A stretch of 64,000 nucleotides of DNA, taken from the NCBI GenBank assembly GCA_016793875.1, contig JAEULG010000025.1:1252-65251 (forward strand), read 5' to 3'. Of this stretch, positions 1 to 21,948 are shown one piece after another. The position numbers and the translations under genes are program-made. The notes under the pieces were generated by a model. That model was not told the origin of the DNA and made no database searches. It saw nothing but the letters and a program-made list of their open reading frames with translations. The stretch's first letter is position 1, and every line of letters starts with the position of its first letter. The DNA is from Rhodospirillales bacterium (GTDB taxonomy: Bacteria > Pseudomonadota > Alphaproteobacteria > Rhodospirillales > Defluviicoccaceae).

Positions 1-203
1 ACCGGCTCAGCCGCCGCCGGCCCGACCGTCAGCGCAATCACGGTATCCCCCTCGCCACGCAGGCGCAGGGCCAACTCCAGTGCTGCCGCATCGGCCGGAT
101 CCATGATGTACAGGGTCCGGTCTGCGTCGATCTCGCCGGTCAGCGGATCGACATCGATCGTCGCCGGATCGGGTACAAGGCTGAGACAAACGGCCAGCCG
201 CAT
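1..203 (-). CDS. etfB: Electron transfer flavoprotein beta subunit (FixA/EtfB-like), N-terminal 67 codons only; gene runs off the left edge
   Basis: Absent from the ORF track because no stop lies in the window. ATG at 203-201 follows a GAGGAG SD (complement of 207-216). Translation MRLAVCLSLVPDPATIDVDPLTGEIDADRTLYIMDPADAAALELALRLRGEGDTVIALTVGP fits the ETF-beta N-terminal pattern (V.K.VPD ... NP.D..ALE.AL). Confidence 0.8.
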   Translation of the reverse strand, partial: MRLAVCLSLVPDPATIDVDPLTGEIDADRTLYIMDPADAAALELALRLRGEGDTVIALTVGPAAAEP

Positions 204-219
204 CGGCCTTCTCCTCGAC

Positions 220-504
220 TCACGATTCCCGGAAGGTCACGCCGAAGCCGCCCGGCGGATATGTCCACCGCAACGCTCCCTCCTTACTGCAGACAAGGAA
301 GCAGGTGCCGCACTCGAAGCATTGCTCGTAGTTGAACAGCACGCTGCCGTCGTCGAGCGGCACGAACAGGTTTGCCGGGCAGACGCAGACACAGGCCTTC
401 GCCGCACAGGTCCGGCACTTCTCCGGGTCGAGGACAATGTGCGGTTCCTCCGCCACCTTGAAGCGGACGGTGCGCATCTTCTCCTCGTGCGTCGTCATCA
501 CCAT
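220..504 (-). CDS. fixX: FixX-type ferredoxin-like protein
   Basis: Internal start MVMTTHEEK of ORF 220..744. Cys clusters CRTCAAKACVCVCP and CFECGTCFLVC. About 94 aa, directly after fixC with overlapping stop/start (498-504). Confidence 0.85.
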   Translation of the reverse strand: MVMTTHEEKMRTVRFKVAEEPHIVLDPEKCRTCAAKACVCVCPANLFVPLDDGSVLFNYEQCFECGTCFLVCSKEGALRWTYPPGGFGVTFRES

Positions 505-1826
505 AGGTAGCTCCTCGCTGCCTGCAGAAGGTCGGCGATCAGGTGACGGGGCTTGGCGCCGGACTGGCGCATTGCCTTGAGGTAGAGCGGCAGGATCTTC
601 TGCTTGGCGTTGCCGTCGACCCTGAACAGCCGTTCGAAACTGGCCGCCGCCATCTCCGGGTAGAGGTTCTGCAGCCTCTCGCCGTTGACGAAGTGCGGCG
701 CATGACGGTAGGCGCGGAAGTCGGTGAAGACATTGTAGGGCCACAACAACTCGGTGTAGCGCTCAAGCGTATGGCGGGTGAAGTCGCGGACCCGGTGGGC
801 CTCGATCGCAGCCTCGCCGGCCGCCATGCCGGACTGCATGGCGTAGTTGATGCCCTCGATGTAGAGCCCGGTGGCAAGGCAGAAGCCGGCGGCATCGCCG
901 GCGACCAGCATGCCGGAGGCCACCAGCTTCGGCATCATCTCCCAGCCGCTCTCGGGGATCAGGTGGGCCGAGTATTCGCGCAGCTTCGCACCACGCAGCA
1001 GCGGCGCCACTGCCGGGTGCGCCTTGAACAGCTCCAGCAGCTCGTAGGGACGCTTGCCCGTCTCGACCAGAGAGGAGACCTGGGCGATCACCCCCAGCGA
1101 CAGCGAATTGCGGTTGGTGTAGAGGAACGCCCCGCCGCGCGCCTTGTCGGTGATCGCGCCGACGTATTCCAGCACCATCCCTTCGTTGCCGGAAAGATTG
1201 AAGCGCTCACGGATCGCCGCTTCCTCCAGACCCAGCACCTCCTTGACGCCCAGCGACAGCTCGTGCGTCTCCAGACGCCGCTGGAGGCCTGCCTGCTGCG
1301 CGAGAAAGGAATTGGCGCCATCGCAGGCAATGACGAGATCGGCGCGGATCTCGCCGTCGTCGCGGCGGACTTTCACACCGACCACCTTGCCGCGCTCCTT
1401 GATGACGCCATCGACCACTGTCGAGGTGAGCAGGAAGGCGCCCGCGGCCTCCGCCTGCGCCGCGAACCAGCGGTCGAACTTCGGCCGCAGGATGGTGAAG
1501 GCATTGTACGGCGGGGCGGCGTAGTCGGGGCTTGCGGAGCGAAAGTCGAGCGAGACCGCGGTGGTCGGCGAAATCAGGATGACGTCGCGCCGGCAGATGT
1601 AGCGCTCAACCGGCGCCTGTTCCCACCAGCCGGGGATCAGCTTGTTGAGCATGGCGCTGCCGTAGAACGCCGCGCCCGAGACGTTTTTCGCACCGGGGTA
1701 TTCACCCCGTTCGATCAGCAGCACGTTGAGCCCGGCGCGGGCGGCGACGATGGCGGCGGCGCTGCCCGCCGGACCGGCGCCGACGACGACGACGTCGAAG
1801 TGGTCGGTCGGCTTGGGCGCTCTCAT
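498..1826 (-). CDS. fixC: Electron-transfer-flavoprotein:quinone oxidoreductase FixC
   Basis: Start MRAPKPTDHFDVVVVGAGPAGSAAA (FAD dinucleotide-binding motif) inside ORF 498..2615. ATGA overlap with the upstream ETF-alpha stop (1823-1826). Length about 442 aa, typical of FixC. Confidence 0.9.
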   Translation of the reverse strand: MRAPKPTDHFDVVVVGAGPAGSAAAIVAARAGLNVLLIERGEYPGAKNVSGAAFYGSAMLNKLIPGWWEQAPVERYICRRDVILISPTTAVSLDFRSASPDYAAPPYNAFTILRPKFDRWFAAQAEAAGAFLLTSTVVDGVIKERGKVVGVKVRRDDGEIRADLVIACDGANSFLAQQAGLQRRLETHELSLGVKEVLGLEEAAIRERFNLSGNEGMVLEYVGAITDKARGGAFLYTNRNSLSLGVIAQVSSLVETGKRPYELLELFKAHPAVAPLLRGAKLREYSAHLIPESGWEMMPKLVASGMLVAGDAAGFCLATGLYIEGINYAMQSGMAAGEAAIEAHRVRDFTRHTLERYTELLWPYNVFTDFRAYRHAPHFVNGERLQNLYPEMAAASFERLFRVDGNAKQKILPLYLKAMRQSGAKPRHLIADLLQAARSYLW

Positions 1827-2926
1827 GGCAAAGCCTCTCTTGCGGAAGCGTCGCGCGGGCGGCCAGCGGCGGCAGCGACGGGGGTGCGGATGACCGGATC
1901 GAGAAGGGCGGGCCGCACCGCCGGCGCGGCCTGTGCCGCCTGCCGCAGGGTGCGCAGCTTGCGGATCAGCACCGGGACTACCGCATGCAGGTCGCCCACA
2001 ACGCCCAGATCCGCCAGCTTCAGCAGTGGCGCCGTCCGGTCGGTATTGACGGCGATGACCGTCTCGCTGCCGGTGATGCCGGCGACGTGCTGGCCGGCCC
2101 CGGAGACGCCCAGCGCCAGGTAAAGCTTCGGTGCGACGATCTTGCCGGTGGTGCCGATGAAGCGGTCCGCCGCCAGCCAGCCGCGGTCGGCGACCACCCG
2201 GGTGCCGCCCAGCGCCGCTTCCAGTTCGTCGGCGAGTTGCTGCAGCAGCGCCATCCCCTCCGGCCCGCCGACGCCGAGCCCGCCGGAGACGATGCGCTCC
2301 GCCTCGGTCAGGTCGACGTCGTGCGGATCGGGCGGCACCGTCCGCAGCGTCCGGTCGCGGAAGGTGGCGGGATCCAGCTCCGGCTCGACGACGGTGACGC
2401 TCGCCGGCCGGCCGGGCAGTGCCGGGCCGACGCCGCGCACGCCCGGCCACAGCATCACCATCACCGCCGTGCCGCGCGCCCAGATCTGGCGCTCGTGCAG
2501 CTTGCCGTCGTGGCTGACCCGGAACACCTCGGGGTAGCCCTCGTCGGTCACCTTGACGCGGATGCAGGCGCTGGCCAGCGGGATGCGCCAGCGGGCGGAC
2601 AGGCGCGGCAGCCACGAGCGGCCATAGCCGCTGTCTGGTGCCAAGGTGAAGACGGCGCGGGTCTCCTTGAGTACCGGCGCCACTGCCGCGAGCCAGCCGT
2701 CGGCGCTGAATTGCGCCAGCGCCTGATGCTCGATTACCGTGACGCGGTCAGCACCGTGCGCCGCCAGTTCGTCGGCAAGGGCCGCCGTCTGGTGGCCGGG
2801 AAGGATGACATGCACCGCGGTGGCGAGGCTCTCGGCGACGTCGCGCGCTTCCTCGACGCACTCCAGGCTCGCCGGGGTCAGCCCGCCGTAGATGGTCTCG
2901 GCAACGACAACGACCGGTGCCGCCAT
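1823..2926 (-). CDS. etfA: Electron transfer flavoprotein alpha subunit (FixB/EtfA-like)
   Basis: 367-aa ORF. The C-terminal FAD-binding region (PKLYLALGVSGAGQHVAGI, VIAVNTD) is typical of ETF-alpha. Start overlaps the stop of the upstream flavoprotein gene (TGATG at 2924-2928). Confidence 0.9.
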   Translation of the reverse strand: MAAPVVVVAETIYGGLTPASLECVEEARDVAESLATAVHVILPGHQTAALADELAAHGADRVTVIEHQALAQFSADGWLAAVAPVLKETRAVFTLAPDSGYGRSWLPRLSARWRIPLASACIRVKVTDEGYPEVFRVSHDGKLHERQIWARGTAVMVMLWPGVRGVGPALPGRPASVTVVEPELDPATFRDRTLRTVPPDPHDVDLTEAERIVSGGLGVGGPEGMALLQQLADELEAALGGTRVVADRGWLAADRFIGTTGKIVAPKLYLALGVSGAGQHVAGITGSETVIAVNTDRTAPLLKLADLGVVGDLHAVVPVLIRKLRTLRQAAQAAPAVRPALLDPVIRTPVAAAAGRPRDASAREALP

Positions 2927-4884
2927 CAGACTGCCCTCCCCGCCTTCTCGCCCTCGATGATCGCCGCGTGCGCCCGTCGCGGAGCGAGGCAGTCGCCGAT
3001 GCGGTGCAGATCCGCCACCTGTCCCTTGAGGGCGGTGTAAAGCCGGCAGTTGGCCCGCCGATGAATGGCGAGGACGACGGTATCGACCTCGGGAAAGCGG
3101 ACGATCTGGCCGCTATAGTTGTGGAGCGCCGTCACCACGCCGTCCTCGATGCTCAGCACCGAGTGGTTCGGCGTGCAGCGGATGCCGAGCCGGCGCGCTT
3201 GCCGGTACCAGTTCTCCAGGTCGAGGGTGACGCCCAGGTCCTGGCCGACGTAGAGGGTCTGCGTGACCACCTCCACCGCGCACCCCTGCTCCGCCATGAA
3301 CTCAGCGGTGCTGGTCGCCTCGTGGAAGCCGAGCCGGTCGATCAGCAGTACGCGCCGGCCCGGCGTCACCCGGCCGGCGAGGATGTCTGTCGCATCGGCG
3401 ACGCGGGGGCCGTCGGCGCCGGGGATGGCACGGCGGTCGGGCAGCGAGCCGGTCGCCACGATCACCGCATCCGGCTGCCCCGCGAGAACCATCTCCGGCG
3501 TCGCGGCGACGCCGGTCTGAATCCCCACCGGCAGCTGCTCGACCTCGTGCACGAGATTGCGGATGATATCGCCGAACTCGGCGCGGGCGGTGACCCGCAC
3601 CGCCCAGGCGACCTGACCCCCGAGCCGGTCTTCCTTTTCCAGCAGGGTGACCTGATGGCCGCGGCGGGCGGCGACGGCTGCCGCCTTCAATCCGGCGGGA
3701 CCACCGCCGATCACGGTCACCCGCTTCGCCGGCTTCGCCGGCTGGAGGGTGCCGGCGCCAAGCGACTGCTCGCGGCCGGTGGCCGGCGTCTCGATGCAGC
3801 CGAGCCAGCGGTTCAGGCCCATCCGGCCAACGCATTCCTGGTTGCACGACAGGCACAGGCGGATGTCGTCGGCGCGGTTTTCCCGCGCCTTGCGGGCAAA
3901 TTCCGGGTCGGCGATCTGCGCCCGGACGATGCCGACGAGATCGGCATGCCCTTCCGCCAGCAGCCGCTCCGCCTGGATCGGATCCTTGACCCGGCCGACA
4001 CCGATAACCGGCAGGTGCACCGCCTTGCGGATCGCCGACGGAATGAACATCGCGTAGTTGGGCGGGATGCGCATCGACGCTTCGATCATGTAGAGCGTCT
4101 GCGTCGCGGTCCCAATGCTGGTGTTGATGCAATCGATCAGCCGGTCACGCTCGAGCAACCGGGCCAGATCCACCGCCTCCTCGATGGTGATGCCGTCGCG
4201 GATGAGCTCGTCGCCGCAGAGGCGGACGCTGAGCACGTAGTCGCGGCCGACCGCCACGCGGATGGCGCCAATGATCTCGCGCAGCAGCCGCGCCCGGTTC
4301 TCCAGGCTGCCGCCGTAGGCATCGGTCCGGGTGTTGGTGCTGCGCGACAGGAACTGGCGGACGATCGAGGAATGGGAGCATTGCAGTTCAACGCCGTCGA
4401 AACCGCCACGCTTGGTGTAGCCGGCGACGGTGGCGTAGCCGTCGATGATCTGGTGGATGTCCTCGTGCTCGACCGCCTTCGGCACCTCACGGAACAGCGG
4501 ATCGGCGATGGCGGAGGGCGCCCAGGCCGGCAGCCGCGTGAACATCCCACTGCTCTGGCCGCCGTTATGGTTGATCTGCGCAAGGATGGGCGTTCCCTCG
4601 GCATGAACCATCTCGGTGATGCGGCGGTAGCCAGGAAGCACCGCAGGATTGAAGGCGTGGATCAGCTTCTCGTAAGGGTGGTCGGTCGGGTGGACCGAGT
4701 GCTCCTCGGTAATGATCAGGCCGGCGCCACCGCGCGCCCGCTCGCGGTAATAGCAGGCGTGGCGGTCAGTCGGCATGAAGTCTTCGGCGAAGTTGGTGAG
4801 GTGCGCCGAGAACACGATGCGGTTCTGCACCGTGATGTTGCCGATCTTCAACGGCGAGAACAGCAGGCGTGAAGGGCTGCTCAT
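2926..4884 (-). CDS. FMN/FAD iron-sulfur flavoprotein of the trimethylamine dehydrogenase / 2,4-dienoyl-CoA reductase family (OYE-like barrel + NAD(P)/FAD domain)
   Basis: Start MSSPSRLLFSPLKIGN. OYE-type barrel motifs (GGAGLIITEEHSVHP). Cx2Cx3Cx11C motif CLSCNQECVGRMGLNRWLGC. Rossmann motif VIGGGPAGLKAAAVAARRGHQVTLLE. GGGAGG SD lies inside the end of the upstream gene. Confidence 0.85.
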   Translation of the reverse strand: MSSPSRLLFSPLKIGNITVQNRIVFSAHLTNFAEDFMPTDRHACYYRERARGGAGLIITEEHSVHPTDHPYEKLIHAFNPAVLPGYRRITEMVHAEGTPILAQINHNGGQSSGMFTRLPAWAPSAIADPLFREVPKAVEHEDIHQIIDGYATVAGYTKRGGFDGVELQCSHSSIVRQFLSRSTNTRTDAYGGSLENRARLLREIIGAIRVAVGRDYVLSVRLCGDELIRDGITIEEAVDLARLLERDRLIDCINTSIGTATQTLYMIEASMRIPPNYAMFIPSAIRKAVHLPVIGVGRVKDPIQAERLLAEGHADLVGIVRAQIADPEFARKARENRADDIRLCLSCNQECVGRMGLNRWLGCIETPATGREQSLGAGTLQPAKPAKRVTVIGGGPAGLKAAAVAARRGHQVTLLEKEDRLGGQVAWAVRVTARAEFGDIIRNLVHEVEQLPVGIQTGVAATPEMVLAGQPDAVIVATGSLPDRRAIPGADGPRVADATDILAGRVTPGRRVLLIDRLGFHEATSTAEFMAEQGCAVEVVTQTLYVGQDLGVTLDLENWYRQARRLGIRCTPNHSVLSIEDGVVTALHNYSGQIVRFPEVDTVVLAIHRRANCRLYTALKGQVADLHRIGDCLAPRRAHAAIIEGEKAGRAV

Positions 4885-4885
4885 C

Positions 4886-6859
4886 TCAAACCTCCCGTCC
4901 CGCCCGATAGCCTTCCAGGATCGCCGAGGCCAGCGAGCGCGGCGCAACGCAGTCGCCGGCGCGGAAGACGCGCAGTCCGGCCTCCTTCAGGGTGAAGTAG
5001 AGGTCCTCGTCGGGGACCTCGTGCGCCACCGGGACCACCAGATCGACGTCGCCGATGACGACCGGAGAGCGGTCGAAGGCGTCGATGCCGCTGACGCTGC
5101 GCCCATCCACTTTCTCCACCACCACCTGCGGCCGGAAGACGATGGCCTTGGCGGCGGCGCGCTGGTTCCACGGCGTCAGCTCCATCGAGGCGGTCAGCCG
5201 CTGGCCGACGAACATATCGCGGGTGACCACCTCGACCGTCCAGCCGTGGTCGGCGAGCCACTCGGCAACACCCATGCCCCGATGATCGCCGACAACATCG
5301 AGCACGACCGCCTTTCCGGGGGTGGCGGCGGCCTTGCCGGCCATCACCTGTCGCGGAGCCAGCACCGGCATGCCATCGGTGAACGCGACGCGCGGGACGG
5401 TGCCGGCCCTCGCACCGACGGCAATGATCACCGCATCGGGTTCTTCTTCCTGCACCTCTGCCAGCGTCACGACCGTGCCGGTCCTGATGGTGACGTTCAG
5501 CCGACGGACCTGTGCTTCCAGCCAGTCCACCGCGAGCCCCAGCCGCTCCCGGCCAGGCGCCATTGCCGCAAGCCGGATCGCGCCGCCCAATCCGCCATCC
5601 TGCTCGCACAGGGTGACGCTGTGACCGCGCAGGGCGGCGACCCGTGCCGCCTCTAGGCCTGCCGGCCCGCCGCCCACCACCAGCACCCGGTAGTGCACCG
5701 GGGCGCGGGTCAGCGGAGCGAACTCGGGCGTGGCCTCGTAGCCGGCTGCCGGATTGTTGACACAGGACAGGCGCGGGTTCTGCACCAGCCCCACGACGTT
5801 GTCCTGGTTGGAGAGCACGCACGGCCGTACGGCCGCGGCGTTCCCCTCGCGGACCTTCGCCGGCAGCTCCGGATCGGCGATCAGCGCGCGCGTCATCTCG
5901 ACGGCATCGGCTTCGCCGCGGGCGATGATTCCAGCGGCCATGCCCGGATCGACGATGCTGCCTTGCGCGAACACCGGCACCGGCACCGCCGCCTTGATCA
6001 CGGCAGAAAGGTGAGCGGCAAAGCCCGGCGGCGCATAAAGACCGGGGCGGGTGAGATGGGCGCTGTAGATGCTGCCGCTAGTGACGCTAACGAAGTCGGC
6101 GAGGCCAGCCGTAGTGAACAGGCGGGCGATCTCTACCGCATCCTCCGGCTTGATGCCGGCCCAAGGTGCATATTCATCACCCACCAGCCGCAGCCCGACG
6201 ATCCCCGGTCCGACGGCGCCGCGCACGCCTTCCAGGATGGCGCGGGCGAAGCGCAGCCGGTTTTCGGCGCTGCCGCCCCAGCCGTCGCTTCGCTGGTTGG
6301 TCAGCGGCGAGAGGAACTGGCGGATGAGGCTGTCCTGGCCGGCGTTGATCTCGACGCCGTCGAGGCCGCCGGCCATCGCGTAGGCCGCCGCCTGGACAAA
6401 GCCATCGATGACCGAGACGATGTCCTCCTCCTCCATCTCCTTCGGCATTTCGCGGCTGTTGACCTCGGGGACCGGCGAGGGCGCCCACAGCGGCAGCTGC
6501 GAGTAGTGGCTGCTGCCCTGCATGCCGCTGTGAGTGAGGTGCGCCAGCGCCAGGGCGCCATGACGGTGGACTGCATCTGCCACCAGCCGGTAGCCGGCGA
6601 CCACGCCCGCCTCGTAGCCGAAAATGGCGTACTCGTACGGCCAGTCGGAGGGATGGACGACGCTGCCTTCGAGAACGATGAGGCCCGCGCCACCGGCGGC
6701 GCGGGCACCGTAATAGGCGGCGTGCCGCTTCTCGAAGCGGTGATGTGTGGCGAAGTTGGTCTGATGTGCCGCGAAGACGAGACGGTTTGCCGCCTCCCGC
6801 CCGCCGAGCGCCAGCGGGGCGAAGAGACAATCGAAGTCGTCCTGCCGCAGCGTCGGCAT
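4886..6859 (-). CDS. Paralogous TMADH/dienoyl-CoA-reductase-family flavoprotein lacking two of the four Fe-S cysteines
   Basis: 657-aa ORF with the same architecture (GGAGLIVLEGSVVHP; VVGGGPAGLEAARVAALRGHSVTLCE). The segment aligned to the Fe-S motif reads CVLSNQDNVVGLVQNPRLSC. Confidence 0.8.
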   Translation of the reverse strand: MPTLRQDDFDCLFAPLALGGREAANRLVFAAHQTNFATHHRFEKRHAAYYGARAAGGAGLIVLEGSVVHPSDWPYEYAIFGYEAGVVAGYRLVADAVHRHGALALAHLTHSGMQGSSHYSQLPLWAPSPVPEVNSREMPKEMEEEDIVSVIDGFVQAAAYAMAGGLDGVEINAGQDSLIRQFLSPLTNQRSDGWGGSAENRLRFARAILEGVRGAVGPGIVGLRLVGDEYAPWAGIKPEDAVEIARLFTTAGLADFVSVTSGSIYSAHLTRPGLYAPPGFAAHLSAVIKAAVPVPVFAQGSIVDPGMAAGIIARGEADAVEMTRALIADPELPAKVREGNAAAVRPCVLSNQDNVVGLVQNPRLSCVNNPAAGYEATPEFAPLTRAPVHYRVLVVGGGPAGLEAARVAALRGHSVTLCEQDGGLGGAIRLAAMAPGRERLGLAVDWLEAQVRRLNVTIRTGTVVTLAEVQEEEPDAVIIAVGARAGTVPRVAFTDGMPVLAPRQVMAGKAAATPGKAVVLDVVGDHRGMGVAEWLADHGWTVEVVTRDMFVGQRLTASMELTPWNQRAAAKAIVFRPQVVVEKVDGRSVSGIDAFDRSPVVIGDVDLVVPVAHEVPDEDLYFTLKEAGLRVFRAGDCVAPRSLASAILEGYRAGREV

Positions 6860-6864
6860 CGGCG

Positions 6865-7935
6865 TTACTCCGCCGCCTGCGCGGCAGTCGCCTCGGCAGC
6901 AAGCGGCGCGGCGACGCTCGCCTCATCGTCGCTGCCGAAGACGCAGTCGGGATCGGGCGCGTCCAGCGAGCGGCCGGTGAAGTGCTTCACCGCCATGCAG
7001 CCGCCGTGGCATGCGCTGTAGGCGTTGCACGTCTTGCAGCTGCCGCCGACCTGCCATTGCCGCAGGTGGGCGAACAGCGGTGATGTCCGCCACACGCCGG
7101 CGAAGCCACCCTCGTTGCGGACGTTGCCGCCGGAAAACTCTGGCGCGAGCATGAACGGGCACGCATAGACCTCGCCGACCGGATCGACGCAGCAGACGAT
7201 GCGCCCGGCCCCGCACATGTTCAGCCCGTCCATCGGCTCGCCATAGGCGGAGAGGTGGAAGAAGGAATCGCCGGTCAGCACGTCGCGGTGCGCCCGCAGC
7301 CAGTCGTAAAGGCCGCGGTTCTGCGTGTGCGTCGGCCGCAGGGCGTCCCAGACGTCGACGCCGCGGCCGCTCGGGCGCAGCCGGGTCAGCCGCAGTTCGG
7401 CGCCGTAGCCGCTGGCCAGCGCGTACAGCGCATCGAGCTCGGGATAGTTGTGGCGGGTGACGGTGGCGTTGATCTTGAACCGAAAGCCGCGCCCGGCAAG
7501 CCGTTCCATCGCCCGCACCGCGCGCTTGAACGAGCCTTCGCCGCGCACCGGATCGCTTGTTTGCGCGGTGGCACCATCGACGCTGATCTGCACGTCAAGA
7601 TAGTCGCGCGACGCGATCCAGTCGGCGGCATGGTCGTCGATCAACGTACCGTTGGTGCTGAACTTCACGCCGATGCTGCGGTCGAGGGCGTAGTCCATCA
7701 GCGCGAAGAAGTCGGGCCGGCTCATCGGCTCGCCGCCGCCGACATTGATGTAGAACACCTGCATCTCAGCCCACTCGTCGATCAGCCGTCTGGCCTCGGC
7801 GGTGGTCAGTTCGTCGCGACGGCGCTTGCCGGACGACGACAGGCAGTGGACGCAGCGCAGGTTGCAGCCGTAGGTGAGTTCCCAGGTCAGGCAGATCGGC
7901 GCGTCCAGGCCCTTGCGGAAGACCTCGTAGGTCAT
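6865..7935 (-). CDS. mftC: Radical SAM/SPASM peptide maturase, mycofactocin maturase MftC-like
   Basis: Start MTYEVFRKGLDAPICLTWELTYGCNLRCVHC (Cx3Cx2C). Also MQVFYINVGGGEP, GVKFSTNG, LRLTRLRPSGRG, VLTGDSFFHLS, LNMCGAGRIVCCVDPVGEVYACPF and the SPASM motif CKTCNAYSACHGGC. These blocks closely match remembered actinobacterial MftC sequences. ATGA overlap with the upstream methyltransferase. Confidence 0.85.
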   Translation of the reverse strand: MTYEVFRKGLDAPICLTWELTYGCNLRCVHCLSSSGKRRRDELTTAEARRLIDEWAEMQVFYINVGGGEPMSRPDFFALMDYALDRSIGVKFSTNGTLIDDHAADWIASRDYLDVQISVDGATAQTSDPVRGEGSFKRAVRAMERLAGRGFRFKINATVTRHNYPELDALYALASGYGAELRLTRLRPSGRGVDVWDALRPTHTQNRGLYDWLRAHRDVLTGDSFFHLSAYGEPMDGLNMCGAGRIVCCVDPVGEVYACPFMLAPEFSGGNVRNEGGFAGVWRTSPLFAHLRQWQVGGSCKTCNAYSACHGGCMAVKHFTGRSLDAPDPDCVFGSDDEASVAAPLAAEATAAQAAE

Positions 7936-8972
7936 CGGACATGCTCCCGTTGCTGTTCGTACGGCGGGCACGGGCGGTCGAGGACGATCCAGCCGCCGTG
8001 ATGGGTGAAAAAGCGGCAATCGGCCGTGGTCTGCCGGCCGAGCTCGCGCAGGCTGCGCTCGTCGAAGATCTGGCGGTGGCCGTAGCGGGTATCGGGCTCG
8101 CGCTCGAACGGAACGGCGACGATCAGTCGGCGCCGGGTGAGCGCCCACAGGTTCCGCATCGCGCGTTCCGTCTCGGCCGCCGTCAGATGCTCGAGCAGAT
8201 GGATGGCGGTGACCACATCGAAACCTCCGCCGGGATCGAGCTCCCCGACGACACGCCCGGCGAGGATGTCGGCGCAGACGAAGCCGACGCCCGGCACCTG
8301 CCGCTGCTGACGGTAGTCGTTCGCCAGTGCCATTAGCGCCGGATTGATGTCACAGCCGGTGATGCGACGGGCGCCTGCGCGGTGATCGCTGCCGGGCTGC
8401 CCGGCAAGGACGAGCGGCAGGAAGCCGAAGCATGTCGCAACGTCGAGGATGGTCTCGGCCGCCACCTCGGCGACCATCTGGGCGACCTTTGCGTAGATGG
8501 CGCGGAAACTGGCGATGAAGTCGGTCTGGCCGGCTGCTACCCCTGTTGTCGCGGATCCCCGGAGTGCTCCGAGAGTGTTGTCGTAGAACCGGTGCCACGC
8601 CCGGCGCTCGTTGCCGTCCATCGACCTGACGATCGCACCGACGTAGCGCTGGAAATTCTCATGTTCGCTGCTCGCATAGGGGCTTGGCAGGACGGATACG
8701 GCGTGCCGGACCTGCGCCAACAGCGGCAGCAGCTCGTCCGCCACGTAGGCGCCGACGTTGTTGTCGATCTGCTCGGGCGCGAGGCTGTGGACGACGAGGA
8801 GGTCGTCTGGGTCGGCTTCGGCCTGCCCGGCGGGAAGGCCGTAGACGGTGAAGTGATGGCTGGCAGCGAGCCGCGTCGCGTCGCCGTCGAGCCCGCTGAC
8901 CAGCGCCCGATGTCGATGACGCGAGAGGGTTAGCGGGCTCATGGCGCGAACTCCCGATCCATCGCTCATCAT
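7932..8972 (-). CDS. Class I SAM-dependent methyltransferase with about 150-aa N-terminal extension; candidate MftM-like mycofactocin-associated methyltransferase
   Basis: Methyltransferase core ILDVATCFGFLPLVLAG ... ITGCDINPALMALA ... FDVVTAIHLLEHL. Overlap-coupled to the VWA gene upstream (8969-8972) and to mftC downstream (7932-7935). The MftM assignment is inferred from context. An alternative start lies at 8942. Confidence 0.75.
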   Translation of the reverse strand: MMSDGSGVRAMSPLTLSRHRHRALVSGLDGDATRLAASHHFTVYGLPAGQAEADPDDLLVVHSLAPEQIDNNVGAYVADELLPLLAQVRHAVSVLPSPYASSEHENFQRYVGAIVRSMDGNERRAWHRFYDNTLGALRGSATTGVAAGQTDFIASFRAIYAKVAQMVAEVAAETILDVATCFGFLPLVLAGQPGSDHRAGARRITGCDINPALMALANDYRQQRQVPGVGFVCADILAGRVVGELDPGGGFDVVTAIHLLEHLTAAETERAMRNLWALTRRRLIVAVPFEREPDTRYGHRQIFDERSLRELGRQTTADCRFFTHHGGWIVLDRPCPPYEQQREHVR

Positions 8973-10438
8973 CTCCCCACCGCGCCGGGACGGATCAGTT
9001 CACCGGCGATCTTGCCGAGCTGTTCCAGGTTGCGGACCACCTCGGTGCGATGGCACACGGGCTCGTAGAGCGGCATATCAGAGCTGCCGAGGCCCCAGCT
9101 GCCGCGCGGTTCGGGGGACAGCCAGGCGAGATGCCGGCAGCGGCGGCGAATTTCTTCCAGTGCCCAGACGTTGGGCGGATTGCGGTTGCCGCGGCCGTCG
9201 CCCAGCACGATCACCGTCGTTTCCCGCGTCACCTCCGACAGGTGCCGCTGGCAGAAGATTTCCAGAGCCCGCCCGTAGTTGCTGTTGGCATCGCAGTCGA
9301 TCAGCCTGCCGGCGAACACCGCGGCAATGGCATCGTCGATGTCGAGCTGCTCGAAGGACTGGCTGGCGTCGGCCAGGTCGCTGACGAAGACGTAGCTGCG
9401 CACCCGCTCGAACAGCGACTGCAGGCTGTAGACGAGGTGCAGCATGAAGCGGGCGGTGTTGCGAACAGATAGGCTGACGTCGCAGATGACGACGATGCGG
9501 GGCTTGTCCCGGCGCAGACTGGTCATCACCGGCCGGAACGGAATGCCGTCGTAGGCCATGCTGGCGCGCAACGTCCTGGCGACGTGGATGCGACCGCGAC
9601 GCGACGCGACGCGGCGGTACGATCGGGCGCCACGCAGCCGCCGGCCGAGCCGGCGGACGATCTCCGCCATCTCCCGCCGCTCGCCCTCGCTGAAGCCGCC
9701 GATGCGGGCGCCCGGGCGGCGCGGCTGCTCGTCCGACTGTCGTCCTGCCTGCCGCGCCAGCTCGGCCTCCAGGAGCCGCTTCAGGGTCTCCGGCAAGGTC
9801 ATGGCGATCGCCGGCGCCTGCTGCGCCAGCAGGTCGAGCAGAGCCTCGTCCACCTCCAGATCGCGCAATTCCTCCAGCAGACGCCCGATGGAACCGGCTG
9901 AAACGTCCGCATCCAGCGTTTGCAGGATGTCGGAGATATTGAGTTGACCGGGGCGGGACCCGCCGCCGGCCTGCCGGGCATTCACCTGGTGCGTCGCCCG
10001 CTGCATCACCGGATCGAGGAGGCTCTGGGCGCGCTTGAGGATCAGGTTCTGGCCGAATTGCGCCAGTTCGCCCGGCTGGATCTTGGTCCGATCGCCGGCG
10101 CGCGGCGGGCCGCCGTCGACCGGAGCGCCTTCGTCCTCGGTATCAAGCGCGATCTTGTCGGTGTCCGGCGATGGAACCGTGGAGGATGCTCCGGCTTCAT
10201 CCTCCGCTTCGGGGGCTGCCCCCGGCAGGCCGAAGAACAGGTCGAATTGCTCGTCGAACAGCGGGATGTCGGCGGCGTTCTTGATCAGCGTGCTCTGGAG
10301 GGCGATGCGGACCGTCTCCCGGTCGACCAGGCGCACCCACGCCAGCGCGCGCACCGCATCCACAGCTTCGGCCGGCGATATGCCGACACCGGAGCGCTTG
10401 AGAACGCAGATGAAGCGGTTAACCGCCGCGTCCATCAC
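8969..10438 (-). CDS. VWA domain protein (CoxE-like), partner of the MoxR ATPase
   Basis: 489-aa ORF. C-terminal VWA domain with MIDAS-type DxSxS (VVICDVSLSV). Start overlaps the MoxR stop (10435-10438). Confidence 0.8.
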   Translation of the reverse strand: MMDAAVNRFICVLKRSGVGISPAEAVDAVRALAWVRLVDRETVRIALQSTLIKNAADIPLFDEQFDLFFGLPGAAPEAEDEAGASSTVPSPDTDKIALDTEDEGAPVDGGPPRAGDRTKIQPGELAQFGQNLILKRAQSLLDPVMQRATHQVNARQAGGGSRPGQLNISDILQTLDADVSAGSIGRLLEELRDLEVDEALLDLLAQQAPAIAMTLPETLKRLLEAELARQAGRQSDEQPRRPGARIGGFSEGERREMAEIVRRLGRRLRGARSYRRVASRRGRIHVARTLRASMAYDGIPFRPVMTSLRRDKPRIVVICDVSLSVRNTARFMLHLVYSLQSLFERVRSYVFVSDLADASQSFEQLDIDDAIAAVFAGRLIDCDANSNYGRALEIFCQRHLSEVTRETTVIVLGDGRGNRNPPNVWALEEIRRRCRHLAWLSPEPRGSWGLGSSDMPLYEPVCHRTEVVRNLEQLGKIAGELIRPGAVGR

Positions 10439-11535
10439 TCCTCGCCTCCGGGCGCATCCTGGCGCAGGCGGTCGCGGCCGAAATAGCGGGCGGCATGCTC
10501 CCGCTGCCTCGCCTCCATGTCGTGGCGGTCGGGGATAGCCTGAGGCGCCGGCGGCCGCGGCCCTGCGGGTGATCGGCTCCGACCGCGGTCATCGAGGCCT
10601 TCGGAGGCACCCGGCTGCGGCCGATCCGAGCCCTCCAGCAGCCAGGCCAGATGCTCTTCCACCTGGCGCGTGTCGCGCTCGTACTTGACCAACAACTGGA
10701 TCGTTTCTTCCAGCAGCCGGCGGTCAAGCATCTCGACGTTGAGCAGTACCAGGGCCTGCGCCCAGTCCAGCACCTCGCTGATGCTGGGCGCCTTGCGCAG
10801 GTCGAGGCTGCGCATGCGGCGGACGACCTCGACGGCATGCGCCGCCAGCGCTTCGGCCATCGCCGGCACCTTCAGCCGGATGATCTCCAGTTCCCGTTCC
10901 TCGTCCGGATAGCCGATGAACAGGTGCAGGCAGCGGCGCTTCAGCGCGTCACTGAGGTCGCGGGTGTTGTTGCTGGTGATCACCACGTAGGGCGGGGCTT
11001 TCGCCGCCACGGTGCCGATCTCCGGGACGGTCACCTGGAAGTCGCTAAGGAACTCCAGCAGGAACGCCTCGAACTGCTCTTCCGCCCGATCGATCTCGTC
11101 GATCAGCAGGACGACCGGCTCGTCGGCGCTGACCGCCTGCAGGATCGGCCGGCGGACGATGAACGATTCCGAGAAGAAGACATCCTCGTGCTGGCGCAGC
11201 CGTTCCACCGCTGTGCGCAGATCATCTGCACCCGCAAGGAAGGTTCCGATCTTCTCGCGCAGGATCTGGGTATAGAGGAGCTGCTTGCCGTACTCCCACT
11301 CGTAGAGCGCGTGCGCCTCGTCGAGGCCGCCGTAGCATTGCAGCCGGATCAACTCGCGGCCGAGGACGCGGGCGACCACCTTGGCCAGCTCGGTCTTGCC
11401 GACGCCGGCCGGGCCTTCGATGAGGATCGGCTTGCCCATCTTCCAGGCGAGATAGACGACCGTCGCCAGCTTGCGGTCGCAGATGTAGTGCTGCTCCGCC
11501 AGTTGCTCGATGGTCTGCCCGATGGACTCGAACAT
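10435..11535 (-). CDS. MoxR-family AAA+ ATPase
   Basis: Internal start MFESIGQTIEQL of ORF 10435..11928. Walker A GPAGVGKT, Walker B VVLLIDEIDR. Typical MoxR length (about 366 aa). Confidence 0.85.
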   Translation of the reverse strand: MFESIGQTIEQLAEQHYICDRKLATVVYLAWKMGKPILIEGPAGVGKTELAKVVARVLGRELIRLQCYGGLDEAHALYEWEYGKQLLYTQILREKIGTFLAGADDLRTAVERLRQHEDVFFSESFIVRRPILQAVSADEPVVLLIDEIDRAEEQFEAFLLEFLSDFQVTVPEIGTVAAKAPPYVVITSNNTRDLSDALKRRCLHLFIGYPDEERELEIIRLKVPAMAEALAAHAVEVVRRMRSLDLRKAPSISEVLDWAQALVLLNVEMLDRRLLEETIQLLVKYERDTRQVEEHLAWLLEGSDRPQPGASEGLDDRGRSRSPAGPRPPAPQAIPDRHDMEARQREHAARYFGRDRLRQDAPGGEE

Positions 11536-11632: not shown

Positions 11633-12898
11633 TCAGTAGTACGAGCCGACCAGCGAATGCTTGACGATCGGCGCCACCGCCTCGTAGGTGACCTCCCGGG
11701 CGTTGCCCGGGGTCGAGCCGTCGCCCTGCACGTGCCGGGTGATGCGGTCGACGTTATGGTCGTCGCCGTTGATGCCGCCGTTCTGCCACTGAGCGTACTT
11801 GCCCTTGCCCATCTGGGACTTGGTATAGCTGCCGATGCTGGCGAAGTTGGACGGGATGCCGACGTCCTTGCTGAGCTTGACCGCCGCTTCCAGCGCCCGG
11901 TCGGCGGCGGCGACGTCACTGAGGCCATCCACGTTCTCGCCCATGGCGCGGGCGATGTCGCGGAACCGCTTGTAGCAGGTCGGCATGTTGAACTCCCACA
12001 CGCGCGGCAGGCCGATGGCGTTGTTCAGCCCGTGATGGCTGTCATAGAACGCGCTGACCGCGTGCGAGATGGAATGGATAATGCCGAGGCCGCCGCTGTT
12101 GAACGCCTGCGCCGAGATGTAGGAGGCGAACATCATGTTGTAGCGCGCCTCGTAATTGGTCGGCTCGAACACGGCGCGTCGCAGGTTCTGCGCCACCACC
12201 TCGATCGCCTTGAGCGCGCTGCCGAGGCTCGGCATGAAGTCAAGCCGCGAGACGTAGGGCTCGGATGCGTGGGCGAGGACATCGAAGCCGCAGTAGGCGG
12301 TCAAATCCTGCGGCAGGGTGAAGTGCAGCACCGGATCGTTGATGCTCAGCGTCGCCGGGCAGTTGTCGTCGAAGCCGAGCCACTTGTACGGCGCCTTCTC
12401 CGACGTGGTATCGGTGATGACGAAGGCCCAGCTCGTCTCGGAGCCGGTGCCGGCGGTGGTGTTAACGGCGATGTGCGGCGGGTTGTCGGGATTCTCAGAC
12501 TTGTTGAAGCCGTCGAACTCATTGACGTTGCGGCCGTCGTGAGCGATGACCAGACGCGCGCCTTTGGTCGCATCGGTAGTGCTGCCGCCACCAACGGAAA
12601 TAAAGCTGTCGCACTTTTCCTTCATATAGAGATCGGCGATCTCCATGCAGTTGTAGTCTTTGGGATTGGACTCGATCTTGTCGTAAACGATGACGTCGAC
12701 GCCCTGATAGCGCACCTTGCCGACGATATCGTCGATGACGCCGGTGCCGCGCAGGCCGCTGCTGGTCAGCAGCGCTCGTTTAAATCCAAGCTTCTTCGCT
12801 TCGACGCCAATCAGCTCGTATGACCCCGGCCCGAGCAGGCCGCGGGGGATCCGATGGAATTCCTTGATCGGGAATTGCCAAAGCTTTTCGACCTGCAT
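11633..12898 (-). CDS. mno: Iron-type (group III) alcohol dehydrogenase, NDMA-dependent methanol dehydrogenase (Mno/ThcE)-like
   Basis: 421 aa. WQFPIKEFH, GFKRALLTSSGLRG, ESNPKDYN, GGGSTTDATKGARLVIAHDGRNVNEFDGF, TTAGTGSETSW and HSISHAVSAFYDSHHGLNNA match the remembered actinobacterial NDMA-methanol dehydrogenase family, including the long C-terminal tail. GGAGGAG SD precedes the ATG. Confidence 0.85.
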   Translation of the reverse strand: MQVEKLWQFPIKEFHRIPRGLLGPGSYELIGVEAKKLGFKRALLTSSGLRGTGVIDDIVGKVRYQGVDVIVYDKIESNPKDYNCMEIADLYMKEKCDSFISVGGGSTTDATKGARLVIAHDGRNVNEFDGFNKSENPDNPPHIAVNTTAGTGSETSWAFVITDTTSEKAPYKWLGFDDNCPATLSINDPVLHFTLPQDLTAYCGFDVLAHASEPYVSRLDFMPSLGSALKAIEVVAQNLRRAVFEPTNYEARYNMMFASYISAQAFNSGGLGIIHSISHAVSAFYDSHHGLNNAIGLPRVWEFNMPTCYKRFRDIARAMGENVDGLSDVAAADRALEAAVKLSKDVGIPSNFASIGSYTKSQMGKGKYAQWQNGGINGDDHNVDRITRHVQGDGSTPGNAREVTYEAVAPIVKHSLVGSYY

Positions 12899-19166: not shown

Positions 19167-19759
19167 AGAGCGATTTTCTCGACCCCGAGGAACTGGCTGC
19201 GCTGCAGCTGCGCTCGATCGGCCGGAACGTCAGGATCAGCCGCCGCGCCGTGCTGTTCCGGCCGGGGCGGATCAGTCTCGGCGATCACTCCCGGATCGAT
19301 GCCTTCTGCATCCTCTCCGCCGGCCCTGCCGGGATCAGCATCGGCCGCAACGTCCATGTCTCCGCCTATTCCGCCATCCTCGGCCAGGACCGGGTGACGA
19401 TCGCCGATTTCGCCACTATCTCCGTCCGCTGCACGCTGTTCTCGTCCAACGACGACTACAGCGGCCTGACCATGGCCAATGCCACCATCCCCGCCGACTT
19501 CCGTGGTGCGATCGATGCGCCAGTCGTGGTGGAGACCCACGCCATCATCGGCGCGGGCAGCTTCGTGCTGCCCGGTGTCGTCGTCGGCGAGAGCGCCTGC
19601 GTCGGCGCTGCAAGCCTGGTGAAGGCGAGCGTCGCACCGTTCGATGTCGTCGCCGGGGTGCCGGCACGCCGCATCGGCCACCGCCACCCCGGGCATCGCG
19701 CCCTGGCCGAACGGCTGCTGCAACGGGAAGCCGCCGACCTTAGCAGCACCGACGGCTGA
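19163..19759 (+). CDS. Left-handed beta-helix (hexapeptide-repeat) sugar N-acetyltransferase
   Basis: Hexapeptide repeats (IGRNVRIS, LGDHSRID, IGRNVHVS, IGAGSFVLPGVVVGESACVGAASLV). GTG start overlaps the aminotransferase stop (GTGA, 19163-19166). Confidence 0.8.
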   Translation: MKSDFLDPEELAALQLRSIGRNVRISRRAVLFRPGRISLGDHSRIDAFCILSAGPAGISIGRNVHVSAYSAILGQDRVTIADFATISVRCTLFSSNDDYSGLTMANATIPADFRGAIDAPVVVETHAIIGAGSFVLPGVVVGESACVGAASLVKASVAPFDVVAGVPARRIGHRHPGHRALAERLLQREAADLSSTDG

Positions 19760-19792
19760 GCCGCGCGCGAGCCGGGACGGGTGCCCAACGGC

Positions 19793-20254
19793 CTACTTCA
19801 CGACCACCGTGCCGGTCATGCCGAAGACGGAATGTAGCGGGCGGTCGCAGCTCAAGGGGTAAGTGCCGGAGCGCAAGGGGAGGACGTCTATCTCGGCGCT
19901 CTGCCCCGCGGCGACGCTGACGGTGCCACCAGCGTCGCGGATTTGCGCCGATTCCGGCCCGGGGCCAAGAGCGGCAGTGCGGAAGAACTCCGGAGCGGTG
20001 AAGGTGTGGCGGGTGCCGCTGGCGTTGCGCAGCTGCAGGACGTACGGCTGGTTCGCCCGCAGCACCACCTGTGACGGGTTAAAGCTGAAGTCGTCAAGGA
20101 CGACCTCCAGCTTCTGCGCCCGCTCCCAGTCGACAGCGGCGGGAGGCGCTGGCGCCGGCGCCTCCGCAGGGCTCGCCGGCGTTGCCCCCCTCCCGCCGCC
20201 GCAGCCGGCCGCGAGCAGTGCCACTGCGATCATCAGGGACGAGCGTTTCATCAC
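19793..20254 (-). CDS. Cupredoxin-like (type-1 copper) lipoprotein
   Basis: Lipobox LLAAGC after a signal peptide. C-terminal Cx4Hx4M ligand pattern (SCDRPLHSVFGM) with an upstream His (TRHTF). Confidence 0.75.
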   Translation of the reverse strand: MMKRSSLMIAVALLAAGCGGGRGATPASPAEAPAPAPPAAVDWERAQKLEVVLDDFSFNPSQVVLRANQPYVLQLRNASGTRHTFTAPEFFRTAALGPGPESAQIRDAGGTVSVAAGQSAEIDVLPLRSGTYPLSCDRPLHSVFGMTGTVVVK

Positions 20255-20414
20255 CGGACCTCCGCCAAAGTGGTCGGGCGACTGTAGTACAACCCCGACG
20301 CGAAGGCCAGCGCCGGCGGTGCGAGCGCCGCCCTTGCCGCTGCGCCCGCGCGCCTCTAGGATCGCCCGCCGATGCCGGCCGCCATGGCCGTGCAGGCTCC
20401 GGGAGGGATAATCA

Positions 20415-20843
20415 ATGAGCGATCTGCACGGGTTCTATTTCGAGGACCTGAAGGAAGGCCAGACGGCGAGTTTTGGCAAGACCATCACCGAATCCGATAT
20501 TTATACCTTCGCTGGCGTCTCCGGCGACCTCAACCCGGTGCACGTCAACGAGGACTTCGCCAAGACGACGATGTTCAAGTCGCGCATCGCCCACGGCATG
20601 ATCGGCGCCTCGTTCATCTCCGCCGTGCTCGGCACCAAGCTGCCGGGGCCGGGCTGCATCTACATCAAGCAGGAGCTGAAGTTCAAGGCGCCGGTGAAGA
20701 TCGGCGATACCCTGATCGCCCACGTCACCATCAAGAAGCTGATCCCCGAGAAGAAGTTCGTCGAGTGCGAGACGGTTTGCACGGTCGGCGACAAGAAGGT
20801 GATCGACGGCGAAGCCGTGGTCATGGTGCCCTCGCGCGGCTGA
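20415..20843 (+). CDS. MaoC-like (R)-specific enoyl-CoA hydratase / dehydratase
   Basis: 142 aa. Hot-dog hydratase motif FAGVSGDLNPVHVNEDFAKTTMFKSRIAHGM. Confidence 0.85.
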   Translation: MSDLHGFYFEDLKEGQTASFGKTITESDIYTFAGVSGDLNPVHVNEDFAKTTMFKSRIAHGMIGASFISAVLGTKLPGPGCIYIKQELKFKAPVKIGDTLIAHVTIKKLIPEKKFVECETVCTVGDKKVIDGEAVVMVPSRG

Positions 20844-20858
20844 ACGCGCGCTCCGACA

Positions 20859-20882
20859 GCCGGCGGCGCGACAGCCGCCGGC
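20859..20882 (+). terminator. GC hairpin after the MaoC-like gene (terminator-like, no U tract)
   Basis: gccggcggc (20859-67), loop gcgaca, gccgccggc (20874-82). Perfect 9-bp stem 16 nt after the stop. Confidence 0.4.
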
Positions 20883-20935
20883 CATAACGCAGACAGCCTC
20901 TTGACCGCGGCGGCGCGGGCGGACACGTTGCGCTT

Positions 20936-21907: not shown

Positions 21908-21948
21908 GCCTTAGCCTTCGCAAATTTGCCTGAATCGGAATACGCCCT

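Follow-up and report, generated by a model that had tools for sequence, protein, structure and literature searches.

A mycofactocin-linked flavoprotein–ETF–FixCX cassette in Rhodospirillales as a candidate substitute for MftD and MftG

What is the function of a set of electron transfer flavoprotein (ETF) genes that stand in an unusual order inside a mycofactocin operon? The question is raised by a 64-kb stretch of a Rhodospirillales genome (contig JAEULG010000025.1; hereafter, the window), whose left end carries a minus-strand block of six genes. These encode two flavoproteins of the FadH/OYE type (OYE-A, in the OYE_1 position, and OYE-B, an OYE_2 protein), followed by EtfA, FixC, FixX, and EtfB, the last gene being cut by the window edge. 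Mycobacteria need mycofactocin to metabolize alcohols. The pathway was regarded as complete once MftG had been assigned; in the MftG paper, 25% of the genomes with mftC had no MftG, and the question of a substitute enzyme was left open there. We propose, with a probability of roughly 40%, that the cassette encodes an O2-independent chain leading from the flavoproteins through ETF and FixCX to quinone, which would oxidize the mycofactocin core and substitute for both MftD and MftG in such clusters. We regard the whole as a variant form of the mycofactocin system already known, with parts that annotation databases have labelled and a function that is unpublished.

The block lies inside an operon for mycofactocin biosynthesis, with mftC on one side and mftE on the other. 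Its left flank was obtained from a contig of the European Nucleotide Archive (L004), which is 99.5% identical to the window across 13.5 kb and extends past its left edge with a full-length EtfB gene (289 aa), mftE, mftF, mftA, a gene for a mycofactocin-coupled short-chain dehydrogenase/reductase (SDR), and mftB, all of them except EtfB above the NCBIfam cut-offs. Combined, the two contigs give the operon mdo-madB-madC-mftM-mftC-[OYE1-OYE2-etfA-fixC-fixX-etfB]-mftE-mftF-mftA-SDR-mftB, and its layout is shared by Defluviicoccus vanus, the closest complete genome to the window, and by two more contigs. The invariant mycofactocin set of Haft (mftA, mftB, mftC, and mftF) is complete, with mftC in the window and the rest on L004, all above cut-off. 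Within the block, neighbouring genes overlap by 1–7 nt or are separated by no more than 16 nt. The widest intergenic gap of the whole operon is about 97 nt, between mdo and madB, and a scan for promoters and terminators yielded no signal above chance, terminator-like sites between the genes included. The original prediction for this locus correctly placed the ETF-beta gene after fixX, in the order etfA-fixC-fixX-etfB, and two flavoproteins of about 650 aa (657 and 652 aa) directly before the ETF/FixCX genes; what it described as a fusion to the flavoprotein pair is a set of adjacent genes.

The canonical order is fixA(etfB)-fixB(etfA)-fixC-fixX, whereas no fewer than 15 independent loci, belonging to five or more phyla, share the order seen in the window, so the arrangement is not due to chance. 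Cassettes beside mft genes were observed in Defluviicoccus and related Rhodospirillales (five loci, including L004), in Geomonas and Geobacter (two loci, with OYE_2 only), in a Halobacteriales metagenome-assembled genome (MAG) and on plasmid pHTUR01 of Haloterrigena turkmenica, in a Microthrixaceae MAG (Acidimicrobiia), in Kitasatospora gansuensis and on Streptomyces plasmids, and on six metagenome contigs, one of which has the block inverted relative to mftC. EtfA and OYE-B of the window group with homologues from Rhodospirillales (D. vanus, 77–88% identity), Competibacter, and similar wastewater and soil Proteobacteria, not from Actinobacteria. Scanning of a genome collection with an OYE-B alignment and a generic pattern gave at least 80 loci, most of those listed being distant non-mft OYE homologues; Rhodospirillales are not among the matches listed. 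Among these listed matches, homologues with at least 45% identity to OYE-B have mftC nearby wherever flanks exist, and those with at most 42% identity almost never do.

The linkage also bears on the alternative that the genes have nothing to do with mycofactocin and form a module for tertiary-amine or DgcA-like demethylation, or for enoyl-CoA conversion, that happens to lie in this operon. The proteins do belong to the superfamily of trimethylamine dehydrogenase (TMADH) and dienoyl-CoA reductase (DCR), and some more distant OYE+ETF sets are found without mft genes, e.g., at locus L016 and at locus L022, where an acyl-CoA ligase is present. However, orthologues with at least 45% identity adjoin mftC wherever flanks allow, the linkage spans at least five phyla and plasmids, the curated OYE-B family is named for mycofactocin, and the operon contains no DgcB-like Fe-S partner, amine transporter, or CoA ligase. 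We regard this explanation, which the original prediction had given as an alternative, as scarcely credible.

Four of the six cassette proteins are already labelled in RefSeq as belonging to or associated with the mycofactocin system, FixC and FixX bearing generic names. On a Streptomyces plasmid, the RefSeq series reads mftA, mftB, mftC, OYE 1, OYE 2, mycofactocin-associated ETF alpha, FAD-dependent oxidoreductase, 4Fe-4S protein, mycofactocin-associated ETF beta, and mftE. Thus, the association, including the split alpha...beta order, has been recorded by annotators. A literature search for mycofactocin together with electron transfer flavoprotein, FadH, or OYE retrieved no publication linking them in the library searched, and the flavoproteins are unmentioned in the paper of Haft (2011).

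A second peculiarity of the operon is the lack of two genes. No GMC oxidoreductase was detected in the window by NCBIfam scans of about 50 open reading frames (ORFs) or by tblastn with a GMC query that was positive on a control locus, as had been noted before. The earlier reading of this absence in terms of MftG overlooked that mftD is missing as well and that the cassette, lying between mftC and mftE, occupies the canonical mftD slot. Both mftD/FMN_dh and mftG-type GMC genes are missing from the window, from L004, and from every cassette locus (window scans, flanks of 10–14 kb, and plasmids), and when the unassigned ORFs near mft loci were scanned with NCBIfam and Pfam for a hidden MftD or MftG, unrelated genes only were obtained.

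Mutual exclusion was observed in metagenomes. We collected 80 metagenomic mft loci by an MftC alignment and searched them by tblastn with the operon proteins and with FMN_dh and GMC detectors. The detector queries, Escherichia coli LldD and BetA, served for detection only and were validated by their matches to independently annotated MftD and GMC genes; the FMN_dh detector recovers the Pfam-annotated MftD of two Rhodococcus loci at 35% identity. An OYE gene is next to mftC in 16 loci and an MftD-like gene in 15, and no locus has both. Among the 29 loci with a flank of at least 8 kb, 12 contain OYE only, 10 MftD only, none both, and 7 neither (Fisher p ~0.001, which is indicative only, since the loci are not phylogenetically independent). 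Two linear plasmids of Streptomyces illustrate the exchange: NBC_00080 carries mftR-mftG-mftA-B-C-mftD-E-F with no OYE or ETF gene, and NBC_00564 carries mftR-mftA-B-C-OYE1-OYE2-etfA-fixC-fixX-etfB-mftE with neither mftD nor mftG. In the plasmid collection, mftD at 60% identity or more is present in four records, none of which is a cassette plasmid, and an MftG-like gene at E<=1e-60 on NBC_00080 only. At the level of genomes, MftC is present and MftG absent, according to the published table of the two proteins, in D. vanus, Geobacter pickeringii, Geotalea uraniireducens, H. turkmenica, Halolamina, and most Amycolatopsis.

Could the OYE pair replace MftD alone? It would then act as an O2-independent deaminating dehydrogenase of the precursor AHDP with ETF/FixCX as its outlet, the re-oxidation of mycofactocin occurring elsewhere or being dispensable. 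The position between mftC and mftE and the mutual exclusion with MftD in 31 metagenomic loci fit this explanation. So do clusters in which the pair occurs without ETF/FixCX and with no mftD in the flanks: A-B-C-OYE1-OYE2-E...F in Pseudonocardia sediminis, A-B-C-OYE1-OYE2-SDR-F-E in Amycolatopsis thermophila, and two similar soil contigs. MftG is retained in Pseudonocardia; the MftD step, from AHDP to premycofactocin, has been described as aerobic; MftD was called "not universal" by Haft (2011); and Amycolatopsis methanolica makes methylmycofactocinol, an OYE-type cluster being present in its congener A. thermophila. On the other side, Rhodococcus clusters contain both mftD and the OYE pair, four additional electron-transfer genes seem uneconomical for a low-flux biosynthetic step, and OYE-B does not have the cysteinyl-FMN residue of amine dehydrogenases. 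Replacement of MftD alone was a working idea that we downgraded because of the Rhodococcus clusters, and we now consider it unlikely. A third layout was seen in two soil mft loci, L102 (16845–17207) and L126 (12524–12883), where a single OYE_1-like gene follows mftC and the other strand has, at a distance of several kb, an isolated match to the C-terminal part of EtfA.

The two flavoproteins have features of both reductases and dehydrogenases. Among solved structures, OYE-B aligns end to end with 2-naphthoyl-CoA reductase (NCR; 317 bits) and E. coli DCR (278 bits), histamine dehydrogenase and TMADH being more distant (187–203 bits, 187 for TMADH). It contains an FMN domain, the iron-sulfur motif CxxCNQxC...C with all four cysteines of a 4Fe-4S site (C344, C347, C351, and C363), and an FAD-type GGGPAG. 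The NADPH-site pattern GxGxxG is absent from both proteins, with LIDRLGFH in OYE-B and VLDVVGDH in OYE-A against IIGCGGIG in DCR, which suggests that a protein partner would be needed; the related TMADH and histamine dehydrogenase donate electrons to ETF. Leu29 of OYE-B aligns with the cysteine of cysteinyl-FMN (Cys30 of TMADH in 1DJN and its counterpart in histamine dehydrogenase). The histidine aligned to TMADH His172 is retained, whereas DCR and NCR do not have it, and the Gln/His pair of OYE-B corresponds to Met/Glu in DCR and Cys/Val in NCR. The label "TMADH/DCR-type" given earlier holds for the superfamily; within it, OYE-B is closer in sequence to the naphthoyl- and dienoyl-CoA reductases than to TMADH and lacks the TMADH cysteine.

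OYE-A is 39% identical to OYE-B. Only OYE-B exceeds the TIGR03997 cut-off of 793.15 (972.8 bits, against 752.8 for OYE-A), and OYE-A also stays below the cut-off of 627.9 for TIGR03996, OYE oxidoreductase 1 (540 bits). It keeps two of the four iron-sulfur cysteines, and its active-site histidine is gone, Asn...Gln replacing Gln...His. The pattern Asn/Asp...Gln without histidine is common to OYE_1 proteins and to OYE-A, which occupies their position, and the histidine is missing from OYE_1 in every lineage. The four cysteines of OYE_1 are all lost in a soil contig (L146) and Pseudonocardia, partly lost in the window clade, and all kept in other lineages; the scatter of these losses indicates that one member of the pair lost its Fe-S cluster repeatedly and independently. 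A Pfam scan of long OYE homologues for informative fusions gave only OYE-OYE fusions, namely a 1328-aa protein of Pseudonocardia sulfidoxydans, whose N-terminal half is OYE_1, and representatives of 1334 and 1456 aa. The OYE1-OYE2 fusions argue for a heterodimer, and the pair probably acts as one.

All four subunit types of FixABCX/EtfABCX are present in the cassette. The best solved structure for FixC is chain C of 7KOE, the ETF-quinone oxidoreductase FixC (257 bits). EtfA retains the FAD-binding C-terminal signature; its nearest structures are alpha subunits of bifurcating-type ETFs (CarE, 5OL2_A, and 7KOE_B, the last at 155 bits), and among NCBIfam models an acryloyl-CoA reductase ETF (187.8 bits) ranks before NF038209 (183.9 bits, cut-off 240). 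For EtfB, TIGR04503 (mft_etfB) is the best model, the full-length protein of L004 reaching 149.9 bits with a cut-off of 200. All scores of the ETF/FixCX proteins are below the curated cut-offs for FixA, FixB, FixC, and FixX. Since the synteny of EtfA and EtfB is identical to that of the Streptomyces genes named in RefSeq, they are by context divergent members of the mycofactocin-associated ETFs. In K. gansuensis, a called gene (L169:12279–14249) joins the ETF-alpha C-terminus to FixC in one protein of 656 aa among fragmented neighbours, which is either a genuine fusion or the result of assembly frameshifts. FixC of L004 (13059–14345) has 428 aa and a different C-terminus, compared with 442 aa in the window; in one of the two sequences, fixC is frameshifted close to its 3' end.

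The resemblance of EtfA to bifurcating ETFs suggests another explanation, in which the cassette bifurcates electrons as FixABCX/EtfABCX does, sending them to quinone and to a low-potential branch that feeds the OYE flavoproteins (in the manner of the donor of naphthoyl-CoA reductase) or MftC; alternatively, the OYE pair is an extra mycofactocin-dependent substrate reductase. All the best structural relatives of EtfA are of the bifurcating type, FixC matches FixC of EtfABCX, and the OYE pair persists together with MftD and MftG in Rhodococcus. In EtfB, however, the loop that binds the nucleotide differs from those of both the bifurcating ETF of Acidaminococcus fermentans and the AMP-binding ETF of Methylophilus methylotrophus. 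The segment aligned to GRQAIDGDTAQVGP of A. fermentans EtfB is WRSLARGSGKIPA in the window clade and RSxDRGSGxVPA elsewhere; the cofactor content cannot be read from these letters, and the divergence of this second-nucleotide loop makes NADH-driven bifurcation doubtful. Further, a ferredoxin, flavodoxin, or NADH-binding partner is missing from the cluster, low-potential reduction is not required by any of the known steps in the biosynthesis of mycofactocin, and the loss of mftD and mftG would stay unexplained. This group of explanations appears distinctly improbable.

The slot between etfA and etfB provides a hint of where the electrons go. In a deltaproteobacterial mft cluster (L008, 13709–16346), it contains a cytochrome c7-like gene and Fer4/CCG genes (HdrD/EtfD-like) with no FixCX; in L022, a more distant non-mft locus, it contains a NarI-like membrane domain together with Fer4 and CCG. 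As the contents of the slot vary, the middle module seems to be an interchangeable, ETF-oxidizing unit directed to the membrane or quinone, which supports the idea of a quinone-directed sink.

Such a sink would also suit a chain that only re-oxidizes reduced mycofactocin, passing electrons from mycofactocinol to ETF, FixCX, and quinone as an analogue of MftG, with the MftD step performed by an unlinked gene or another enzyme. The cassette-bearing lineages have no MftG in the published table, mdo belongs to the same operon, the quinone-side module is interchangeable, and a dedicated ETF with its ETF:quinone oxidoreductase suits a high catabolic flux. In addition, membranes of the Delta-mftG mutant were reported to retain background oxidation of reduced mycofactocin (MFTH2), pointing to alternative dehydrogenases. 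Yet this leaves unexplained why mftD is absent from every cassette cluster, including apparently self-contained ones on plasmids, and why the OYE pair and MftG are found together in Pseudonocardia and Rhodococcus. On balance, this more limited role is rather unlikely.

The substitution for both MftD and MftG accounts for these observations in the following way. The OYE_2 protein would carry FMN, a 4Fe-4S cluster, and FAD, with OYE_1 partly degenerate in this clade. The pair would oxidize C3 of the pyrrolidinone core of mycofactocin and, having no NAD(P)H site, would hand the electrons to the dedicated ETF, from which FixC and FixX could relay them to the quinone pool. The chain would cover the reaction of MftD, from AHDP to premycofactocin, and that of MftG, the re-oxidation of mycofactocinol reduced by Mdo and SDRs; in Rhodococcus, it would be an additional route. 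The occurrence of cassette clusters in strict anaerobes also fits such a chain, as the MftD step has been described as aerobic. Beyond the genomic anatomy and the motifs, we infer the substrate, the heterodimer, the direction of electron flow, and the quinone acceptor. Tentatively, one and the same FMN site might oxidize the 3-amino precursor AHDP once and the 3-hydroxy compound mycofactocinol repeatedly, all electrons going to quinone without O2. Because the ETF resembles the bifurcating types, a more extreme version, in which mycofactocinol itself drives bifurcation, may also be considered. With quinone as acceptor, both oxidations are thermodynamically favourable, since a midpoint potential of about -255 mV has been reported for premycofactocin. 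The tetrazolium-linked alcohol dehydrogenase of A. methanolica, according to a 1997 study, is said to be a three-component complex containing an Mdo-type enzyme, which we treat as a lead and not as evidence. A. methanolica, the producer of methylmycofactocinol mentioned above, has no MftG in the published table, and the OYE proteins may be candidates for the other components of the complex.

Several observations speak against the dual substitution. With EtfA of a bifurcating-like type, a simple linear chain is not assured. OYE-B is nearest to ene- and aryl-CoA reductases (NCR and DCR), not to amine dehydrogenases, and if the chain served biosynthesis only, an electron outlet of four genes would seem extravagant. 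Many actinobacterial OYE clusters are devoid of ETF/FixCX. Rhodococcus ruber and Rhodococcus sp. X156 have the cluster A-B-C-mftD-OYE1-(SDR)-OYE2 and also MftG, and the gene numbering in Table 4 of Haft suggests that R. jostii RHA1 holds mftD and the OYE pair as well. Thus, simple replacement is not universal, and in Rhodococcus the role of the OYE pair is different or redundant. Pseudonocardia species, one of which carries OYE_2, have MftG elsewhere in the genome. Finally, there are mft loci whose flanks contain no OYE and no MftD gene, and a gene absent locally may therefore be present elsewhere in the genome; the absence of mftD and mftG was judged on 10–14 kb flanks and plasmids, and at the genome level for MftG only, through the published table. 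The original prediction that the chain could re-oxidize the cofactor of the alcohol dehydrogenase is thus partly supported and should be widened to cover the missing mftD; it gains from the embedding in the mft operon, the MftG-negative lineages, and the interchangeable outlet, and loses from the coexistence of the OYE pair with MftG in Pseudonocardia and Rhodococcus.

Coordinates of the operon genes in the window are given in Table 1.

Table 1. Mycofactocin operon genes in the window, listed from the left edge.
Gene	Coordinates	Strand	Product	Best models and remarks
etfB (5' part)	1..203	-	ETF beta, first 67 codons	ATG at 203; translation MRLAVCLSLVPDP...; runs off window edge
fixX	220..504	-	ferredoxin-like protein, nine cysteines	NCBIfam PRK15449 FixX, E 6.5e-18
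fixC	498..1826	-	FAD-dependent ETF:quinone oxidoreductase-type protein, 442 aa	NCBIfam FixC models, 364 and 357 bits
etfA	1823..2926	-	ETF alpha, 367 aa	NF038209 mft_etfA, 183.9 bits (cut-off 240)
OYE-B	2926..4884	-	mycofactocin system FadH/OYE oxidoreductase 2, 652 aa	TIGR03997, 972.8 bits (cut-off 793)
OYE-A	4886..6859	-	OYE_1-position paralogue, 657 aa	TIGR03997, 752.8 bits; TIGR03996, 540 bits; both below cut-off
mftC	6865..7935	-	mycofactocin radical SAM maturase	TIGR03962, 616 bits (cut-off 265)
mftM-like	7932..8972	-	methyltransferase	NF041255, 168 bits (cut-off 200)
madC-like	8969..10438	-	VWA protein	NF047783, 213.7 bits (cut-off 600)
madB-like	10435..11535	-	AAA ATPase	NF047784, 356.8 bits (cut-off 475); start codon from L004 gene call
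mdo	11633..12898	-	NDMA-dependent methanol/alcohol dehydrogenase, first gene of the operon	TIGR04266, 652.7 bits (cut-off 625)

Other genes of the operon have their own peculiarities. The mftM-like gene overlaps the mftC start by 4 nt; the linkage of mdo and mftM was reported for Actinobacteria, and its presence in this operon shows that it holds in an alphaproteobacterium too. Between mdo and mftM lies the madB-like/madC-like pair (8969–11535), and AAA+VWA pairs near mft genes or Mdo are also present in Pseudonocardia, H. turkmenica, and soil contigs; one possibility is a MoxR-like chaperone for Mdo. On L004, mftA and mftB close the operon at a distance of about 10 kb from mftC; most other loci have them directly upstream of mftC. 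In this part of L004 (17950–19239), the mycofactocin-coupled SDR gene is located between the two, and the MftA precursor is long (57 aa), with the C-terminus ...IDGMCGVY. Directly after the operon (19540–21959), L004 encodes a nitric-oxide sensor of the NosP type (FIST; 465.8 bits with a cut-off of 450) together with a hybrid histidine kinase with PAS, which hints at NO- or redox-responsive control. The remainder of the window, from 13 to 64 kb, consists of chromosomal housekeeping genes (ribF, ileS, rpoD, dnaG, carA, leuA, mreBC, and PBP2), among which a type III polyketide synthase gene (DpgA-like, 159 bits, below cut-off) with a small co-oriented ORF was found at 29365–30950.

The finding places a complete mycofactocin/Mdo system in wastewater Alphaproteobacteria, relatives of Defluviicoccus. 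The cassette is the leading candidate for making and re-oxidizing mycofactocin in the MftG-less quarter of its users, including strict anaerobes and archaea. If the dual replacement of MftD and MftG is true, it would explain how mycofactocin is both made and recycled in strict anaerobes, haloarchaea, and the approximately 25% of genomes without MftG, and ETF would link mycofactocin to the quinone pool.

Comparison with known systems shows what the cassette shares with each of them and where it departs. NCR and DCR (FadH) are the closest structures for OYE-B and have an identical CxxCNQxC...C motif; like NCR, OYE-B has no NADPH site, and unlike these reductases, the cassette cluster has no CoA-ester context. 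TMADH and histamine dehydrogenase share the architecture of FMN, 4Fe-4S, and ADP/FAD domains, the lack of an NAD(P)H site, and, presumably, ETF as the acceptor. OYE-B differs from TMADH in its intact FAD-type GGGPAG, in the Leu replacing the cysteinyl-FMN Cys, and in working as one of two paralogues; presumably it acts on the mycofactocin core and not on a free amine. FixABCX/EtfABCX systems, such as EtfABCX of Thermotoga maritima (PDB 7KOE), comprise the same four protein types with a presumed quinone outlet, and FixX and FixC of the cassette match the E. coli-type models; the cassette differs in gene order, in the EtfB loop, and in being invariably accompanied by FadH/OYE flavoproteins and mft genes.

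Compared with the canonical mftABCDEF cluster with mftG, the cassette-type cluster (the window, L004, and the cassette loci) has neither mftD nor mftG. MftD, an FMN-dependent enzyme of the alpha-hydroxy-acid-oxidase family, occupies the same slot between mftC and mftE, and both FMN enzymes would be able in principle to oxidize C3. The OYE pair differs from it in fold, in the possession of Fe-S and FAD, and in its proposed independence from O2, and coexists with it in Rhodococcus. The transfer of electrons from reduced mycofactocin to the respiratory chain, the role proposed for the cassette, is that of MftG, the mycobacterial GMC-type mycofactocinol dehydrogenase, which is absent where the cassette is found, although the OYE pair can coexist with it. 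The two are unrelated in fold and cofactors: what MftG does with one gene, the cassette would do with six, through an ETF/FixCX relay.

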